Origin: a virus
UHGV virus genome: UHGV-0274736
DNA length: 13,898 bases
Reading direction: 5' to 3' (one strand)
Shown: positions 4,579 to 11,217 of the stretch, piece by piece
How the letters are laid out: each line of letters begins with the position of its first letter
Position numbering within the stretch: the stretch's first letter is position 1
Notes under the pieces: model-generated
The model's input: only the letters and a program-made list of their open reading frames with translations
The model's database searches: none
What the model was told of the DNA's origin: nothing
Made by a program: the position numbers and the translations under genes

Positions 4579-4875
4579 TTAGTCATTACTGATAGCGCCA
4601 TAGCGTGAGCGGTAATTACGCAGACGCGGGTCGATATATTCAGGGAATTTGTCTATTGTCGCTTTTCGCAACGGTCTCATTGCTGTTTCGTTTGTTCGGT
4701 CCTTCTCCTGTTTTAGCGCGAGTTGTATATCGCGTCGGTACTTCCGTTCTTCTTTTGTTTCTGGTGGCAGAGCAAGAAACGCGTCGAGATTATTCTTGAT
4801 ATTTTCCAGCACCTCCGATATGGAATTGCCGGAACAGCGGCGCGGGTCGTCCGCACCATATAGAGGCGCTGGCAT
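4579..4875 (-). CDS. Hypothetical protein (98 aa)
   Basis: Complete minus-strand ORF in operon context; weak SD; no recognised motif. Confidence 0.5.
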
Positions 4876-4898: not shown

Positions 4899-5486
4899 TC
4901 AGAAAGGAGGGTAATCGTTCTGGCTGTAACCATAATCATCTGCATGATTATGGCTTACGTTTTTAGAGCGATTGTCTTTATCTTTGAGGCTGGCAACCAT
5001 GTTGGCGATAGTTTCTGGTTGCTTGCCTTCCGCCTTTTCTTTAAGGGTTTGACCTGTTTGTGCAATAAACGGGATGCGTATTTCCATCTGGTAGCTGTCT
5101 GCGCCAGTCTTTTTGTTTGTGGTTAATACTTTCTGGAGCACTAACCCGATTTTCTTTCCATGAAATTCAGGTGCAACAAATTTACTGGCGGAAACCATAT
5201 GTTGCGTTAATTGTCCAATCCCGGCACACCCCATCATGGCGTGAACGACATTTGTGCCAAATTTGTTTTCCGTTCCGTCATTTTTCTGAACACAGACGCT
5301 AAGATATTGGATTTTACGTCCGTCGTCGGATTCGCCAGAAAACTCAATAAATTTGGCTCCTTTTTCTGATTGCTTTAGTTCTGCTTCAGTAATGGTAATG
5401 ATATGAGCGCCAGTTTCGTTAATAAAACCGCCTTGTCCTGCGGTCAGTGCTGCTTCTTCGTTATAAGTAAAAATCACGCTGATCAT
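4899..5486 (-). CDS. SSB-like recombination accessory protein, DUF669-type (195 aa)
   Basis: N-terminal pattern G-x-F/Y...ITEAELKQSEKGAKFIEF typical of DUF669 as I recall it; acidic C-terminal tail ending DDYGYSQNDYPPF resembles the SSB C-terminal DDDIPF tip; ATGA overlap with the upstream ATPase gene. Confidence 0.55.
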   Translation of the reverse strand: MISVIFTYNEEAALTAGQGGFINETGAHIITITEAELKQSEKGAKFIEFSGESDDGRKIQYLSVCVQKNDGTENKFGTNVVHAMMGCAGIGQLTQHMVSASKFVAPEFHGKKIGLVLQKVLTTNKKTGADSYQMEIRIPFIAQTGQTLKEKAEGKQPETIANMVASLKDKDNRSKNVSHNHADDYGYSQNDYPPF

Positions 5487-6163
5487 GCGGCGTTTTCCTT
5501 AATTTGATGAACATTATTGATGCCGTAGTAATCACAAACAGTGGCATCGACGAAAGAGAGATCGTTATCAATCTCATTGGAATCAAACATTCCCATTGGG
5601 GATTTAACAGTGTCTGCACCGTTGTTTTTCGTGATGAAAAAGAACTGGTCATCGCGGGTAAGAGTGCGAAGAACTATAGTAAACATGCCTTCGACAGTGA
5701 TTTTCTCGTCCAGCATTTTGCCGATAGTTTTCATTTTCACGCGCCCCATAGGGGTTTCTTCGGTATGGGCAAGAAAATAGACTCTCAGGTCATCAGGCGC
5801 ATCCTGTGCAGCCTTAATGACCTCCCATGCGTGACGGCCTATCTCAGTGAATTTATCAAACGATTTTTCTTCTGAGCGGCGCATAAACTCATTGCTCATC
5901 ACATACTGGAAGTCATCAACAATAACGATTCTTTTCCCGTATTCGTGAGCACGCTTAATTACGGCAACTATTACGTCCCATTTGTCAGTGGTGACTACGG
6001 TTCCTTTTTTTGCTCTGGCATCCCATGCAAGCCAGTCTTTTGATTTAAATGGTAGCGGCTTGCCTATTGGTTTTATAAGTATTGCTTCCTCGGGATTGAT
6101 ATTTCTCATGCTGGTTGATTTTCCGGTGCCAGACTCACCGAGTATTAATGTCGCAGTTCCCAT
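5483..6163 (-). CDS. Sak4-like RecA-fold ATPase (AAA_24 type, 226 aa)
   Basis: Walker A GESGTGKST near the N-terminus, Walker B RIVIVDDF; size and position next to an SSB-like gene are typical of phage Sak4 recombinases; GAGGTGA SD. Confidence 0.75.
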   Translation of the reverse strand: MGTATLILGESGTGKSTSMRNINPEEAILIKPIGKPLPFKSKDWLAWDARAKKGTVVTTDKWDVIVAVIKRAHEYGKRIVIVDDFQYVMSNEFMRRSEEKSFDKFTEIGRHAWEVIKAAQDAPDDLRVYFLAHTEETPMGRVKMKTIGKMLDEKITVEGMFTIVLRTLTRDDQFFFITKNNGADTVKSPMGMFDSNEIDNDLSFVDATVCDYYGINNVHQIKENAA

Positions 6164-6171
6164 AATTCACC

Positions 6172-6360
6172 TCAGAATGGTAATTCGGATGGAGAGGAAA
6201 GAAACTCGCGCTCATTCATGCGCTCTCTTTGTGCCTGCCATAAAGAAAGTTGTTTCTTTGATTTATCTCCCGCTTTACGCCAGTAACGAGCCTCAGCAAT
6301 GTGATATTCTCTTTTTAATCGACTTAACTCTGGGGTTTTCGCCAGTTCTACCGGAATCAT
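6172..6360 (-). CDS. Small hypothetical protein (62 aa from second Met; track ORF starts at 6372)
   Basis: GGAGG 6 nt upstream of the ATG at 6358-6360; ATGA overlap with kil stop; occupies the position of gam in lambda but is not Gam-like. Confidence 0.45.
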   Translation of the reverse strand: MIPVELAKTPELSRLKREYHIAEARYWRKAGDKSKKQLSLWQAQRERMNEREFLSSPSELPF

Positions 6361-6470
6361 TTTGACCTCCATTTTCTGTAGGCTTCTACGGCTTCACGAA
6401 ACATCTTTTCATCGCCAATAAAAGTGGCGATAGTGAATTTAGTCTGGATAGCCATAAGTGTTTTATCCAT
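6357..6470 (-). CDS. kil: Kil-like host cell-division inhibitor (37 aa)
   Basis: MDKTLMAIQTKFTIATFIGDEKMFREAVEAYRKW resembles recalled lambda Kil; start overlaps cIII stop by 8 nt, as kil and cIII overlap in lambda. The track lists a longer 67-aa ORF with a probably spurious N-terminal extension. Confidence 0.6.
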   Translation of the reverse strand: MDKTLMAIQTKFTIATFIGDEKMFREAVEAYRKWRSK

Positions 6471-6609
6471 TTTTGGGAACTCCTGGCTGATTAAGTACGT
6501 CGATGAGTCGTTTCCATCCGTCACGTAATTTACGGGTGATTCGTTCAAGTAAAGATTCATTTAGTTGGAAGGCACCCATGCGAGCGCCTCCCGCGATTGC
6601 GTAAATCAT
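6463..6609 (-). CDS. cIII: CIII-like protein (FtsH inhibitor, stabiliser of CII), 48 aa
   Basis: Translates MIYAIAGGARMGAFQLNESLLERITRKLRDGWKRLIDVLNQPGVPKNG; the segment ESLLERITRKLRDGWKRLID-LNQPGVPKNG matches recalled lambda CIII; AAGGA SD; below the length cut-off of the ORF track. Confidence 0.8.
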   Translation of the reverse strand: MIYAIAGGARMGAFQLNESLLERITRKLRDGWKRLIDVLNQPGVPKNG

Positions 6610-6633: not shown

Positions 6634-7602
6634 TTAGTAGATTATTTTTGTTGCGAATACTTCGCCTTTTACGATGGCTGTTATGATATTTTTAGCAACA
6701 TCTTCTGATGCGCCAACCTTGATAAGGTCAGCAAGTATTTTGTTATTTACTTCTTTCCGGTGAGCTTTATCCTTTGCTCTACGCTCTTCTTCGTCCTTGA
6801 TTCTTTTTTCTTCTGCTATTCTGGCTTGCTCTTTTGCTTCAGCTTCGCGCCGGATTCGTTCAGCCTCCTCCTGTGCTTTTCGGCGTTCTGCTTCAATTGC
6901 CGCCTGCTTTTCTCTTTCAGCTCGTTCTGCTGCCTCTTTTGCTTCGCGCTGTGCTCGTTGCTCGGCTTCAATGCGTTCACGCTCTGCACGTTCCGCTGCG
7001 GCCTTAGCTTCTGCTTCTCGCCTTGCTGCTGCTTCAATTTCGGCTTTTGCCTTTGCTTCGGCTTCAGCTCTGGCTTTCTCTTCAGCTTCTCTTTTTAAGC
7101 GTTCTTCATGCTCTCGCTTTTCCTGCTCCGCTTTGAGTCTTGCCTCTTCTCTTTGGCGGTCAAATTCGCGATCCATCAAAATAGCTATTTCATGGTCAGA
7201 CTCAATTTGCTTTGCGAGAGCTTCAGCTGCTGCCTTAGCTTCTTCTTCGGCTTTAATCCGTGCCTGTTCCTCCTCATAATCAGTAAGAGGCTGGCGCGCC
7301 TTGGCTTTCAGTTCATCAAGGCGATCGCGCACTGTCTTGCGGTTGGCATCAATTAGCTTTGGAATTTCCTTCAGTTCAGCAACAAGGTCTTTGCCAAGAC
7401 CATCGAGATATGTTTTCGTCTGCGCAACTTTATACGCCAGAGAAGCGATCTCCTTTCTGCCCTTTGCCGTTGTGATATCAGGCACAAAGGACATAACTTC
7501 ACGTTCAACCCTTTGAAGGATTTCTTCAATCTGGTCGGCAGACTGAAATACAGTCATTGCATTTGCTTTTTCAATAACAACTAAATCTGTTACTTCACTC
7601 AT
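6634..7602 (-). CDS. Glu/Ala/Lys/Arg-rich coiled-coil protein (322 aa) with globular N- and C-terminal ends
   Basis: GGAGGA SD 5 nt before ATG; about 170 residues of EAKR-type low-complexity repeat (REAEEKARAEAEAKAKAEIEAAARREAEAK...); the plus-strand ORFs in the same interval are antisense artefacts of the repeat. Confidence 0.75.
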   Translation of the reverse strand: MSEVTDLVVIEKANAMTVFQSADQIEEILQRVEREVMSFVPDITTAKGRKEIASLAYKVAQTKTYLDGLGKDLVAELKEIPKLIDANRKTVRDRLDELKAKARQPLTDYEEEQARIKAEEEAKAAAEALAKQIESDHEIAILMDREFDRQREEARLKAEQEKREHEERLKREAEEKARAEAEAKAKAEIEAAARREAEAKAAAERAERERIEAEQRAQREAKEAAERAEREKQAAIEAERRKAQEEAERIRREAEAKEQARIAEEKRIKDEEERRAKDKAHRKEVNNKILADLIKVGASEDVAKNIITAIVKGEVFATKIIY

Positions 7603-7735
7603 ATATCCTCCGTCAAAAAATTGCCCTCACACTGGAGAGCAAAGAAGATTTCCAATAATCAGAACAAGTCTGCTCCTGTTTAGTTACGAGCGACATTGCT
7701 CCGTGTATTCACTCGTTGGAATGAATAAACAGTGC

Positions 7736-7924
7736 TTATTCGTCATGCATTTCAGGTAATTCTTCGTATTCGACTCCCCATACGTTTTTACACCAACTAA
7801 CTCGCTCATATCTTTTACAAAAATCAGACCACATAACTTGGGTTCCATCATGGTTTGTTATTACTTCTGTAATATCACCAACACTAACAAAACTGGTATT
7901 AGAAGCAGTTATTTTTACTTTCAT
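7736..7924 (-). CDS. Hypothetical protein (62 aa)
   Basis: Complete ORF; start overlaps the stop of the upstream 98-aa gene (TAATG); no recognised motif. Confidence 0.45.
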   Translation of the reverse strand: MKVKITASNTSFVSVGDITEVITNHDGTQVMWSDFCKRYERVSWCKNVWGVEYEELPEMHDE

Positions 7925-8220
7925 TACTTATCCCCAAGAGCTTTTCTGATTGCTGCAAGACCTTTATTAACAGCTCCATACCATTCTGGATATGTTGTCG
8001 TTGTTCTATTTTTGGATTGCTTAAGTAATAACTGAAGTGCTTCGAGAAGGTCAGGTGCTGCCGCTATTAGATTGGCATCTTCAATACATTTAACTTCCTC
8101 ACAGATTGCAATATACGAACGCCAGCCTGCGCCATTTTCAAGTGAGTCTGCCTGGATGATTTTAATCTCATCGCCATCCATCATTATTTCCCACTTACCT
8201 TCAGTACCTTTAAATTCCAT
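7924..8220 (-). CDS. Hypothetical protein (98 aa)
   Basis: AGAGG SD 7 nt before ATG at 8218-8220; no recognised motif. Confidence 0.5.
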   Translation of the reverse strand: MEFKGTEGKWEIMMDGDEIKIIQADSLENGAGWRSYIAICEEVKCIEDANLIAAAPDLLEALQLLLKQSKNRTTTTYPEWYGAVNKGLAAIRKALGDK

Positions 8221-8257
8221 GTTAGCCTCTGTTGTTTATGCCAAAAATAAAGGACGA

Positions 8258-8881
8258 CTATGCGGCCTCGGAAGGAAGTCCAATCATCTTATTCAAATCT
8301 TCTACCCGTAAAGCAGGAAGTGCTGTACTTGCTTTATCTGCTTCTTTTGGTAGCAACTCTTTGCTTTCAGGCCAAACCTCAATAAGTCGCTTAACTGTTG
8401 TGACTGAGTTTAAAGCAGCCCATACATTTGATTCGATATCCTTTTTCTTGGCTTCAAGTTTTTGTTGTAATGAGCAGATTTCATCAAACCTTTTTGTTAT
8501 TTCGTGCTCTGCGTCAAACATGCATTTATCTTTTGTCGGAGTAGGAAGCAATATATCTTCGCCGTTGCCGTCTTTCCCATATGAATGCCATCCAACCCTT
8601 CTGCCAGATACAGTCAGATAAATTGAAGTAGAACGAACATCGCATGAGTAAAATGAACATCCCATCTTTTCAAGTTCTTCACTTATAGCTACCAACTTGG
8701 ATGATAACTGATCAACTTCCTCAGTTTTCTTTTTACCGCCAAACGCAATAACTCTGGCGTCAAGTGCAAGCTGGTTCTTTAACTTTGTTACTTCTTCAAG
8801 TTCAGTGAAAACCCCAGACTTAATTAAAGCTTTACGAGCGATTTCCTCTTTCATTCTCGTAGTTAAGCGGATTGATGACAT
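8258..8881 (-). CDS. Hypothetical protein (207 aa from Met-21 of the track ORF)
   Basis: GAGAGGA SD precedes the ATG at 8879-8881, whereas the track start at 8941 has none; predicted helical with two Cys pairs (CSFYSC, C...C); no family recognised. Confidence 0.5.
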   Translation of the reverse strand: MSSIRLTTRMKEEIARKALIKSGVFTELEEVTKLKNQLALDARVIAFGGKKKTEEVDQLSSKLVAISEELEKMGCSFYSCDVRSTSIYLTVSGRRVGWHSYGKDGNGEDILLPTPTKDKCMFDAEHEITKRFDEICSLQQKLEAKKKDIESNVWAALNSVTTVKRLIEVWPESKELLPKEADKASTALPALRVEDLNKMIGLPSEAA

Positions 8882-9088
8882 ATTAATTCCTCTCAAATAA
8901 GTGGTTTGCTGCCTAATTTCATTTTCTGGCGACCAACACAAGTCACACCCATTTCACTGCGTGGCTTGCGGTAGTAAAGATTGTGCCTGTCTTTTAACCA
9001 CATCAGGCTCGGTGGTTCTCGTGTACCCCTACAGCGAGAAATCGGATAAACTCTATTCACCCCTACAGAGAGCAAAAGAGAAACGCCG

Positions 9089-9670
9089 ATGAACAACTCA
9101 TGGTGGCAGGAACTAATGCATTTTTTCCTGCAAGGAATGACACTTAAACAGTTGATTCATATGCTAATCATCCTGATCATATTGATTATTGTTATGCCGG
9201 TAAGCGTAAAAGAATGGATAAACCTGCATAATCCAGAAATCCTTCCTCATTATTGGATGTATTACATCCTGTTGTTCTGCGTTAGCTATGTGCTTAACGG
9301 TGTTGTTAATTCCGCTTATCACGCTGTGACTGAAAGAATTGAGGTATCCGCTGCTCAGAAGCGCAAATCTAAAGAAGAAAAATATGTGCAAGATTTGTTT
9401 GATTCGTTAACTCTTGGAGAAAGAGCGTATTTGGCATTCGCTGTAGCCGCGAATAACAAGCTAAAGACAGAAAAGGGAAGCCCCGAAGCAATCTCATTGC
9501 TCGAAAAAGGGCTTCTTATTCGGATACCTTCTGCTACTGGATATCCTGAAATCGACCGTTTTGTTATCCCGGAACGCTATAGAAATGAGTGCTACATTAG
9601 GTTTGCTGGGAAGAAAGACAGTCTTATGGATGAACTTATCGCTCAGGATAAGCATGGCAAAAACAAGTAA
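9089..9670 (+). CDS. sieB: Superinfection exclusion protein B
   Basis: MNNSWWQELMHFFLQGMTLKQLIHMLIILIILIIVMPVSVKEWINLHNPEILPHYWMYYILLFC... matches recalled lambda SieB; convergent with N as in lambda. Confidence 0.85.
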   Translation: MNNSWWQELMHFFLQGMTLKQLIHMLIILIILIIVMPVSVKEWINLHNPEILPHYWMYYILLFCVSYVLNGVVNSAYHAVTERIEVSAAQKRKSKEEKYVQDLFDSLTLGERAYLAFAVAANNKLKTEKGSPEAISLLEKGLLIRIPSATGYPEIDRFVIPERYRNECYIRFAGKKDSLMDELIAQDKHGKNK

Positions 9671-9686
9671 TTAGCAAATGATTTTA

Positions 9687-10070
9687 TCATCTCGCCGTCA
9701 GTTGTTTTGATTTCCTGTAGCCTGCCGCGTAAATGGCTACGTTTGGAAGACATACACCAGTTTCTGGTTGCTTATGTCCAAACTCATTCGCGTACACAAT
9801 GGCCGCTCGCTCCAGATTGCGTCTGTATTCTTTCTGTTGCCAGATCACGTCCTGTGCCATGAACTTAATTGGCTTAGCGTCTTCTATGCGCTCAGGCGTT
9901 TCGTGAGCACCTTTAGCCTGAATCTGCGCTCTGCTTAGAGTAGGGCGGTGTAATACTTCTGAACTTATTGCTTCTTCGCGGGCCAGCACGCCGTTAGCTA
10001 ATGCCTTTGCCTTTAAACGCTCACGACGACGAGAACGTGAATTGCCTTTGAACTGAGTTCTGCGTGTCAT
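9687..10070 (-). CDS. N: N-type transcription antiterminator (127 aa) with N-terminal arginine-rich motif
   Basis: AGGAGG SD 6 nt before ATG; N-terminal GNSRSRRRERLKAKA is an arginine-rich RNA-binding motif like lambda/P22 N; sits directly downstream of a boxB-like hairpin and pL-like promoter. Could alternatively be a Nun-type factor. Confidence 0.7.
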   Translation of the reverse strand: MTRRTQFKGNSRSRRRERLKAKALANGVLAREEAISSEVLHRPTLSRAQIQAKGAHETPERIEDAKPIKFMAQDVIWQQKEYRRNLERAAIVYANEFGHKQPETGVCLPNVAIYAAGYRKSKQLTAR

Positions 10071-10472: not shown

Positions 10473-11132
10473 TTAACTAAATGTCTCTTCAGGCCACTGG
10501 CTGGCGATAACTTTCCCTACTACGGAACAGCTATCATTGCATGGGATCATTGGATATTGCGGGTTTAGTGGTTGTAGGAACACCTGACCGCTATCCCTGA
10601 TCAGTTTCTTGAAGGTAAACTCCTCACCACCAAGTCTGGCTATGCAGAAATCACCTGGCTCAACAGCCTGCTCAGGGTCAACGAGAATTAACATCCCGTC
10701 AGGAAAACTTGGCTTGGATCCTGTTGGTGCGGTCATGGAATTACCTTCAACTTCAAGCCAAAACGCACAATCACTGGCTTTTTTGGTTGTGCTGACCCAT
10801 CTCTCCGCATCACCTTTGGTAAAGGTTCTAAGCTCAGGCGAGAACATCCCGGCCTGAACATGAGAAAAAACAGGGTACTCATATTGTTTTTTTACGGGGG
10901 CAGATGAGTATTCGCCAACAGGTGAAAATGTACCGTCGTGGTTGAATGAGACGTTATCAATACCAAGGTATTTAAACACCACACCAATCTCGTCAAGAGA
11001 TGGATGACGAGATCCGCGCAACCAGTGACCAATTCCACCCTGCGTCATACCAAGCTCTTCAGCTAACTTCTCTTGAGTTATGCCGAGCTCTTTCATTCTG
11101 GATCTAGCCAGTTCATACCATTTCATTTTCAT
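10473..11132 (-). CDS. cI: CI repressor: HTH (XRE-type) N-terminal domain plus lambda-type LexA-like S24 autopeptidase C-terminal domain
   Basis: C-terminal roughly 130 aa ([21 protein letters not shown]...GNSMTAP...[27 protein letters not shown]...) match recalled lambda CI including the Ala-Gly cleavage site and Ser/Lys dyad; N-terminal domain differs from lambda. Start is ambiguous (ATG at 11132 or 11126); the track ORF start at 11207 would run through the operator region. Confidence 0.85.
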
Positions 11133-11188
11133 ATCCTTATTATTACGCTCTGTACTAAAACCATCCATGCACAAGATGTATTTTTTGT

Positions 11189-11217
11189 TTGCATTCCAAG
11201 AGTACATATCGTATTAT
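11189..11217 (+). promoter_or_regulatory. pR-like promoter with operator OR candidate in the spacer
   Basis: -35 TTGCAT (11189-11194), 17-nt spacer, -10 TATTAT (11212-11217); spacer contains AGTACATATCGTATT (11201-11215), nearly identical to the OL palindrome. Confidence 0.5.

Follow-up and report, generated by a model that had tools for sequence, protein, structure and literature searches.

Genes and Features of the Early Region

We analyzed a stretch of 13,898 nt of the virus genome UHGV-0274736 (the window), which its gene content identifies as a lambdoid prophage's early region. In addition to an xis gene and a block of Ead/Ea22 and DUF551 genes, the window contains the following features, given by their positions in it:

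484-1554: integrase
4579-4875: Abc2 (anti-RecBCD)
4899-5486: DUF669 protein
5483-6163: AAA_24 ATPase
about 6357-6609: kil and cIII, downstream of the coiled-coil gene
6634-7602, minus strand: coiled-coil gene, 322 aa (phrog_1376, phrog_21365, phrog_17211), part of the context of the three genes studied here
7615-7642, minus strand: hairpin resembling a terminator and followed by a T-run, between ORF-C and the coiled-coil gene
7736-7924, minus strand: ORF-C, 62 aa, pI 4.8, with GGGGA 6 nt upstream
7924-8220, minus strand: ORF-B, 98 aa, pI 4.8, with AGAGG 5 nt upstream
8258-8881, minus strand: ORF-A, 207 aa, ATG at 8881, with GAGAGG ending 7 nt upstream
8893-8975, minus strand: fossil 3′ end of a lambda-type N gene, 27 codons, directly upstream of ORF-A
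9089-9670, plus strand: the superinfection-exclusion gene sieB (Pfam SieB, E = 2.2e-25; phrog_1301, E = 3.8e-123)
9687-10070, minus strand: N antiterminator (Pfam N_peptide, E = 2.2e-15; phrog_271)
10347-10319: pL-like promoter
10473-11207: CI-like repressor, followed by cro, cII, and replication genes

ORF-A, ORF-B, and ORF-C lie between sieB and the coiled-coil gene, in the N-to-cIII stretch of the pL operon, just where an earlier reading made from the sequence alone (the sequence-only reading) had placed them; the coordinates and product lengths (207, 98, and 62 aa) that it gave for three closely spaced minus-strand ORFs with Shine-Dalgarno sequences were exact. A mechanical ORF list begins ORF-A at a TTG codon (8941), but all of its homologues begin with MSSIRLT, so the ATG at 8881 was used as its start. 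A gap of 37 nt separates the stop of ORF-A from the start of ORF-B, and the TAA of ORF-B shares one base with the ATG of ORF-C (TAATG). All three ORFs are real genes: ORF-A has a full-length Pfam match of 234.5 bits (see below), and ORF-B and ORF-C are under purifying selection, with dN/dS values against divergent alleles of about 0.12 (0.218/1.761) and about 0.21 (0.236/1.114), respectively.

On the upstream side, the translation of the fossil N fragment, YYRKPRSEMGVTCVGRQKMKLGSKPLI*, matches the C-terminus of the 99-108-aa N proteins found at other loci, and the fossil marks a mosaic junction; the block 8228-8978, which spans it, is kept as one piece in other phages. The sieB gene is an opposite-strand insertion between N and ORF-A: at many loci that carry a relative of ORF-A (an Nmad5 gene, see below), an N gene 98% identical to the one in the window is found about 64 nt upstream, without sieB. 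On the downstream side, the hairpin consists of an eight-pair stem (TTGCTCTC/GAGGGCAA) followed by TTTTTTG. The linker containing it is conserved, also in phages that lack ORF-B and ORF-C, and positions 7616-7740 form a separate matching piece in phages that carry Nmad5 alone. An Rfam search of the window returned no RNA family.

ORF-A Is a Member of the Nmad5 Family

ORF-A matched the Pfam family Nmad5 (PF18757) over the entire profile (positions 1-206 of 206; E = 1.7e-69; 234.5 bits, with a gathering cut-off of 27), and also phrog_1965 (E = 8.8e-83). Proteins 96-99% identical to it carry the PGAP label “Nmad5 family putative nucleotide modification protein.” The sequence-only reading had found no recognizable family for any of the three proteins, which fails for two of them, ORF-A (PF18757) and ORF-B (very probably PF27050, XkdD/Y8K6; see below). 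Judged by sequence identity, all three are already known: catalogued prophage proteins match them at 95-100% identity, and two of the three have a named family; NCBIfam gave no match for ORF-A, ORF-B, or ORF-C. The profile search for Nmad5 returned 2304 clusters at 50% identity, and the best 150 of these consist almost entirely of stand-alone proteins about 200 aa long. For PF18757, PF27050, and the PHROG identifiers, a literature search found no papers, and the papers that were found on Nmad5 report no biochemical activity for any member.

The AlphaFold2 model of ORF-A (mean pLDDT 85.5) predicts, in this order, three long N-terminal helices, a beta-hairpin, a long helix, and a small compact C-terminal helical module that is attached via a flexible linker; the long helices that had been proposed for the 207-aa protein are thus supported by the model. 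Compared by Foldseek to BFVD (predicted viral protein structures), the fold matches viral relatives in the Nmad5 family, with E-values down to 1e-12 and query-normalised TM-scores up to 0.74; the same comparison gave nothing beyond other Nmad5 proteins, and no enzyme fold. The alignments of ORF-A and of ORF-B, used as profiles against the PDB sequences, gave no match.

The residues conserved across the family are mostly glycine, proline, and hydrophobic residues, together with R5, R43, E172, E175, and N197, and a conserved set of catalytic-type residues was not found among them. The most constrained region is the C-terminal module, which contains an invariant motif, T-x-K-[KR]-L-I-x-x-W-P-E ... 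L-N-x-x-x-G-L-P (in ORF-A: T162, K164, R165, L166, I167, W170, P171, E172, L196, N197, G201, L202, and P203; the conserved L176 and P178 are present as well). Conservation of these C-terminal residues extends over 147 family members and the proteins of YuA, Pam3, and Dhillonvirus, which share only 25-37% identity with ORF-A. For example, gp15 of the Pseudomonas phage YuA and ORF-A contain an identical block of 15 amino acids (NSVTTVKRLIEVWPE), although the DNA encoding it is identical at only 31 of 45 positions, which indicates selection on the protein rather than recent transfer.

The “two Cys pairs” of the sequence-only reading need correction: ORF-A contains the pair C75/C80 plus C120 and C136, of which only C120 is nearly invariant among close relatives, and no cysteine reaches 60% conservation family-wide. 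Since the cysteines are not conserved, no metal site is indicated, and we rejected a cysteine-based zinc- or metal-binding role for ORF-A.

ORF-B and ORF-C

ORF-B matched phrog_1273 (E = 2.6e-31). Its assignment to PF27050 is based on precomputed matches of near-identical proteins: homologues of 56-98% identity, including clusters of 95-98%, have a precomputed PF27050 match, and a homologue of 96% identity is labeled “XkdD/Y8K6 family phage-associated protein” by PGAP. A literature search for XkdD found a single incidental mention in a biological context. Two invariant motifs, G-T-x-G-x-W and L-I-A-A-A-P-D-L-L-E-A-L, are common to more than 160 homologue clusters, and the family is mosaic, with alternative N- and C-terminal segments joined at the invariant LIAAAPDLLEAL motif. 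The AlphaFold2 model of ORF-B (mean pLDDT 73) consists of three strands and a helical hairpin. ORF-C matched phrog_10407 (E = 2.9e-46); its homologues form 21 clusters, none with a Pfam match, and those that are named are from E. coli and Salmonella. Small and acidic, ORF-B and ORF-C probably act by binding to other proteins.

An Exchangeable Slot in the pL Operon

The suggestion that the three genes occupy an exchangeable accessory slot is borne out. This part of the pL operon is hypervariable, containing ral, Nun, DUF2528, or gp17-type genes, or no extra genes, at other loci, and Nmad5 is separated from cIII by between about 109 and about 2100 nt. In phages mEp235 and HK542 and in Stx1 phages, Nmad5 is found alone between N (or Nun) and cIII. 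The link to defence or anti-restriction that had been proposed for the three genes found no support: none of them matches known defence-system proteins or Ral. PADLOC-DB profiles gave no match at E <= 0.1 to ORF-A, ORF-B, or ORF-C, and similarity of the three proteins to Ral, sought in Pfam, PHROGs, and NCBIfam, was not found. In E. coli FREC5, a true ral gene adjoins Nmad5 as a separate gene.

The Three Genes Occur Independently of One Another

We examined the gene order at IMG/VR loci, using for each query the 80 best matches; these samples are ranked by similarity and not dereplicated, so the co-occurrence fractions given here are approximate, whereas the qualitative result is robust. Among 85 loci with an Nmad5 gene 94-99% identical to ORF-A, ORF-B was present at about 15 (∼18%) and ORF-C at about 7; one locus contained ORF-A and ORF-C without ORF-B. 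Starting from ORF-B (80 loci), we found ORF-A upstream in only 7 (9%) and ORF-C downstream in 28, so that 91% of the ORF-B loci lack ORF-A and about 65% lack ORF-C. At the 56 ORF-C loci, ORF-B was directly upstream in 41 (73%), and ORF-A was present in 6. Complete E. coli genomes gave a similar picture: DNA of ORF-A was found in 211, of ORF-B in 160, and of ORF-C in 94 out of 5426 genomes, and the stretch 7600-9100 was covered to at least 80% in only 7 of the 5426; about 7 of the 211 carriers of ORF-A thus have all three genes. In E. coli FREC5, the order is ral, Nmad5, and ORF-B, followed only by a divergent, unannotated relative of ORF-C (52% identical). The neighboring coiled-coil gene varies independently as well, as it was found at only some of the Nmad5, ORF-B, and ORF-C loci.

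These data bear on the main proposal of the sequence-only reading, that the three genes are one co-functional accessory, defence, or counter-defence module whose products are expressed and act together. Their common strand, tight spacing, and the 1-nt stop/start overlap of ORF-B and ORF-C speak for such a module, as does the use of the same slot by ral and gp17-type genes in other phages. In addition, the same trio is found in E. coli GF4 and in several IMG/VR contigs, and phage APC_JM3.2 shows this arrangement too, its third ORF being shorter. But each gene is mostly found without the others, only a few of the E. coli genomes with ORF-A contain the trio, the PADLOC search gave no match, and distant Nmad5 homologues have no conserved neighbor at the sequence level (their 211 neighbor proteins fall into 183 clusters). 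We therefore consider a three-gene module highly improbable: the genes assort independently of one another, an outcome that the sequence-only reading had itself named as a refutation, and the reading of them as a unit is, on the comparative sequence evidence, largely refuted in favor of separately shuffled accessory genes that do not form a linked three-gene system.

A narrower proposal is that ORF-B and ORF-C form a two-gene cassette, their products being paired, e.g., in a complex, with ORF-A unrelated. Translational coupling is implied by the TAATG overlap, the two proteins are alike in being small and acidic, and ORF-B is the direct upstream neighbor at 73% of the ORF-C loci; this, together with an A-B junction that is identical in nearly all loci containing both genes, makes some pairwise functional linkage possible. 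However, about 65% of the ORF-B loci lack ORF-C, and at the 27% of ORF-C loci without ORF-B the gene upstream is mostly an unrelated one of 44 aa, again joined to ORF-C by TAATG. This gene has only its last few codons in common with ORF-B (...ALG[GD][EK]), and these carry the ribosome-binding site of ORF-C, so the B/C junction looks like an expression signal of ORF-C rather than a protein partnership. A paired function of ORF-B and ORF-C is thus unlikely in our view.

Nmad5 Genes in Other Phages

Nmad5 was reportedly defined by Iyer and colleagues in 2013, and its context in base-modification clusters is said to be the origin of the family name. Such contexts do exist. In Pam3, the Nmad5 gene (Pam3_51) lies between aGPT-Pplase1 and a thymidylate-synthase-like dU-hydroxymethylase, and in YuA and the M6-like phage SN1 it is found in the corresponding thymidine-hypermodification cluster. 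In other phages the neighbors are different: in an N4-like Salmonella phage, Nmad5 adjoins ThyX and DNA polymerase; in an N4-like Vibrio phage, it is flanked by SSB and RusA and preceded by primase, DUF2800, and an AAA ATPase; in eiAU, it follows a helicase-primase; in an Oceanospirillum phage, it follows a helicase and has a deoxyribosyltransferase and methylases next to it; and in a further Vibrio phage, RecE and a replication initiator are nearby. Among 123 neighbors of 27 distant Nmad5 lineages, the families that could be recognized are mainly DUF2800, DNA_pol_A, PD-(D/E)XK, ssDNA-binding proteins, AAA_24, helicases, RecT, YqaJ, DnaG, and dUTPase, along with CI-type repressors; hypermodification enzymes are absent from the top families of this census. 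The trend is one of functional category only (replication and recombination). The Dhillonvirus nmad5 gene does not fit this picture: it lies within the head module, encoded by the opposite strand. Overall, Nmad5 is found mainly in replication/recombination modules outside the lambdoid phages, and rarely in base-modification clusters.

The location in the Pam3, YuA, and SN1 clusters raises the question of whether ORF-A could be a nucleotide- or DNA-base-modifying enzyme, by which phage DNA is modified to evade restriction. A role in nucleotide chemistry is conceivable from the YuA/M6-like and Pam3 clusters, and further points for an enzyme are the ThyX neighbor in the N4-like phage, the deoxyribosyltransferase and methylases in the Oceanospirillum phage, and the PGAP name and the Dhillonvirus paper (see below), both of which suggest such a role. 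The window, however, contains no aGPT-Pplase, kinase, hydroxymethylase, rSAM, PLP enzyme, or other modification gene; most Nmad5 members belong to phages without modification clusters; and the family has neither conserved catalytic-type residues nor a detected enzyme fold. In addition, lambdoid coliphages are not known to carry hypermodified bases, which also counts against this role. A modifying enzyme is for these reasons quite improbable. The family membership of ORF-A stands regardless, since association with modification genes is a matter of context and not a sequence criterion, and for most Nmad5 members the name “nucleotide modification protein” in the databases probably misleads.

The Conserved Motif and Escape from Tmn

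Experimental data bearing on Nmad5 come from Dhillonvirus. Mutants that escape the host defence Tmn have nmad5 substitutions, K216E in SM_A8 and K296E in SM_S22; reversion of the nmad5 mutation restored sensitivity to Tmn, whereas deletion of nmad5 did not lead to escape, and cloning of the gene failed, apparently on account of its toxicity (Yamashita et al., 2025; PMC11846954). We fetched both genes and aligned their products to ORF-A: K216 of SM_A8 and K296 of SM_S22 both align with R165, inside the invariant motif. The constrained surface of Nmad5 is thereby linked to an interaction that is important for host immunity, although in proteins that are only 25% identical to ORF-A.

The Tmn data also suggest another role for ORF-A, that of a counter-defence or host-takeover protein that would bind and inhibit a host factor or defence system, the association of the family with replication genes then reflecting only its early expression. 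A single K-to-E change in the motif escapes Tmn while deletion does not, which suggests the gain of an inhibitory interaction; the apparent toxicity upon cloning would agree with an inhibitor, and ORF-A resides in a slot used by ral, Nun, and gp17-type genes. Nevertheless, searches of Pfam, PHROGs, NCBIfam, and viral structures gave no known anti-defence protein, and the Tmn data come from a distant homologue (25% identity). The family is also very broad, with a motif that is invariant across hosts from Pseudomonas to a cyanobacterium, and such invariance is more in keeping with a conserved core partner than with a rapidly evolving defence target. We regard an inhibitor role as a minor possibility.

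A Possible Role for Nmad5 in Lambdoid Phages

Taking the evidence together, we lean slightly toward a reading in which the three ORFs are independent delayed-early accessory cassettes of the lambdoid N-to-cIII interval, with Nmad5 acting as a non-catalytic adaptor in early DNA transactions. Transcription of ORF-A, ORF-B, and ORF-C as delayed-early genes would occur by N-antiterminated read-through from pL, which would span the terminator-like hairpin just downstream of ORF-C. ORF-C may be translationally coupled to whichever gene precedes it. ORF-A would serve early phage replication, recombination, or nucleotide supply as an adaptor that binds protein or DNA; it may dock via its C-terminal motif, and the host Tmn defence may respond to the same surface. 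An adaptor is favored because the family has no catalytic signature or enzyme fold, a replication/recombination neighborhood, and a motif that is kept across distant hosts; going by the absent catalytic signature, the absent fold match, and the gene neighborhood, it is the most likely role for ORF-A.

A bolder version of this scenario would have the Nmad5 module dock on a conserved replication component of the host or the phage, and Tmn (a KAP-family NTPase) read the docking surface. The anti-restriction slot of lambdoid prophages would then hold a portable replication adaptor that is also an immune trigger, and host factors would be inhibited by the small acidic ORF-B and ORF-C as well. We consider this rather improbable as a whole.

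The finding is an ordinary one overall. The remaining lead is Nmad5 itself, which combines a large family, a constrained motif, a replication/recombination neighborhood, and the link to Tmn. Lambdoid phages of the mEp235 type, in which Nmad5 is alone in a dispensable slot, offer convenient genetics for finding the role of the family, and learning that role in lambdoid phages would correct the name “nucleotide modification protein.”

Comparison with Known Systems

ORF-A shares its fold, its C-terminal motif, and a full-length HMM match with other Nmad5 members, namely mEp235_037, YuA gp15, Pam3_51, and the nmad5 products of SM_A8 and SM_S22. Unlike the genes of YuA and Pam3, it lies in the pL N-to-cIII slot of a temperate lambdoid phage, with no hypermodification cluster, and unlike the Dhillonvirus nmad5 genes, whose products are the only members with experimental data, it lies outside the head module. 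ORF-B, which is 96% identical to a protein named for the XkdD/Y8K6 family (PF27050), contains the same two invariant motifs. The three genes resemble the early-left genes of lambda and P22 and their relatives (ral, P22 gene 17, nun of HK022 and mEp235, and sieB) in their genomic position and small size, in their dispensable, exchangeable character, and in belonging to the same N-dependent pL transcription unit; in sequence and profile, however, ORF-A, ORF-B, and ORF-C resemble neither Ral nor gp17, Nun, or SieB.

Mosaic junctions flanking ORF-A, ORF-B and ORF-C

The elements considered around the Nmad5-family gene (ORF-A), ORF-B (98 aa) and ORF-C (62 aa) are as follows.

8893-8975, minus strand: 3′-terminal fossil (27 codons, YYRKPRSEMGVTCVGRQKMKLGSKPLI followed by the stop) of a lambda-type N gene
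2367-2501 in L176, L178, L180 and other loci compared: 44-aa gene (MNAVEFTKWMAEQD...ANALGGE), upstream of ORF-C
7616-7740: conserved linker of ∼125 bp, consisting of a terminator-like hairpin (7615-7642, minus strand) and its flanks
6634-7602, minus strand: highly charged coiled-coil protein, 322 aa

The N-gene fossil lies directly upstream of ORF-A, and a functional N (127 aa) and sieB, on the opposite strand, are found farther upstream. Since a complete N of 99-108 aa with the YYRKPRSEMGVTCVGRQKMKLGSKPLI tail adjoins the same downstream genes at other loci, recombination appears to have brought in sieB together with the current N, leaving the end of the old N in place.

At the other end of the set, the majority of the ORF-C loci that lack ORF-B have the 44-aa gene upstream of ORF-C. 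This gene overlaps ORF-C by 1 nt, as ORF-B does (compare position 7924), and its final few codons are common to ORF-B. These shared last codons and the identical overlap place the mosaic breakpoint inside the 3′ end of the gene preceding ORF-C, in the part that encodes the ORF-C ribosome-binding site.

The ORF-B family (in the window, 7924-8220, minus strand) is itself mosaic (alignment A2): there are at least two unrelated kinds of N-terminal beta segments and several kinds of C-terminal segments, joined at an invariant LIAAAPDLLEAL motif, and nearly all members end in an AAISKALGEE-like tail.

The ∼125-bp linker is present in >2000 E. coli genomes and many phages, regardless of the accessory genes that precede it; because of this wide conservation, a 1.5-kb query matched 2274 E. 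coli genomes, but each single gene only 94-211. The coiled-coil gene is present or absent independently of ORF-A, ORF-B and ORF-C. Its product has two PHROG matches, one to the N-terminal and one to the C-terminal part. Some records name it "TolA" or "cell envelope biogenesis protein", probably an artefact of low complexity.

Tmn-escape substitutions in Nmad5

Substitutions that escape the host defence system Tmn, K296E and K216E, have been published for Dhillonvirus nmad5 (PMC11846954). The genes compared are:

L312 (PP627283), 5005-6009: Dhillonvirus nmad5
L313 (PP920553), 5047-5811: Dhillonvirus nmad5

Within the invariant motif K-[KR]-L-I-x-x-W-P-E, both substitutions fall on the [KR] position, which is R165 in ORF-A. 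The nmad5 annotation of phage SM_S22 has 80 additional N-terminal residues, missing from SM_A8 and Bas84, that overlap the scaffold gene; this start call looks over-long.

Recombination module

4899-6163, minus strand: recombination module, Sak4-like AAA_24 ATPase and a 195-aa protein

The anti-RecBCD gene Abc2 comes after this pair. AAA_24, ssDNA-binding and DUF2800 families, as in this module, recur beside distant Nmad5 genes. A local Pfam search gave no match to the 195-aa protein at E≤0.001; in APC_JM3.2, its same-position counterpart carries the annotation DUF669 domain-containing protein.
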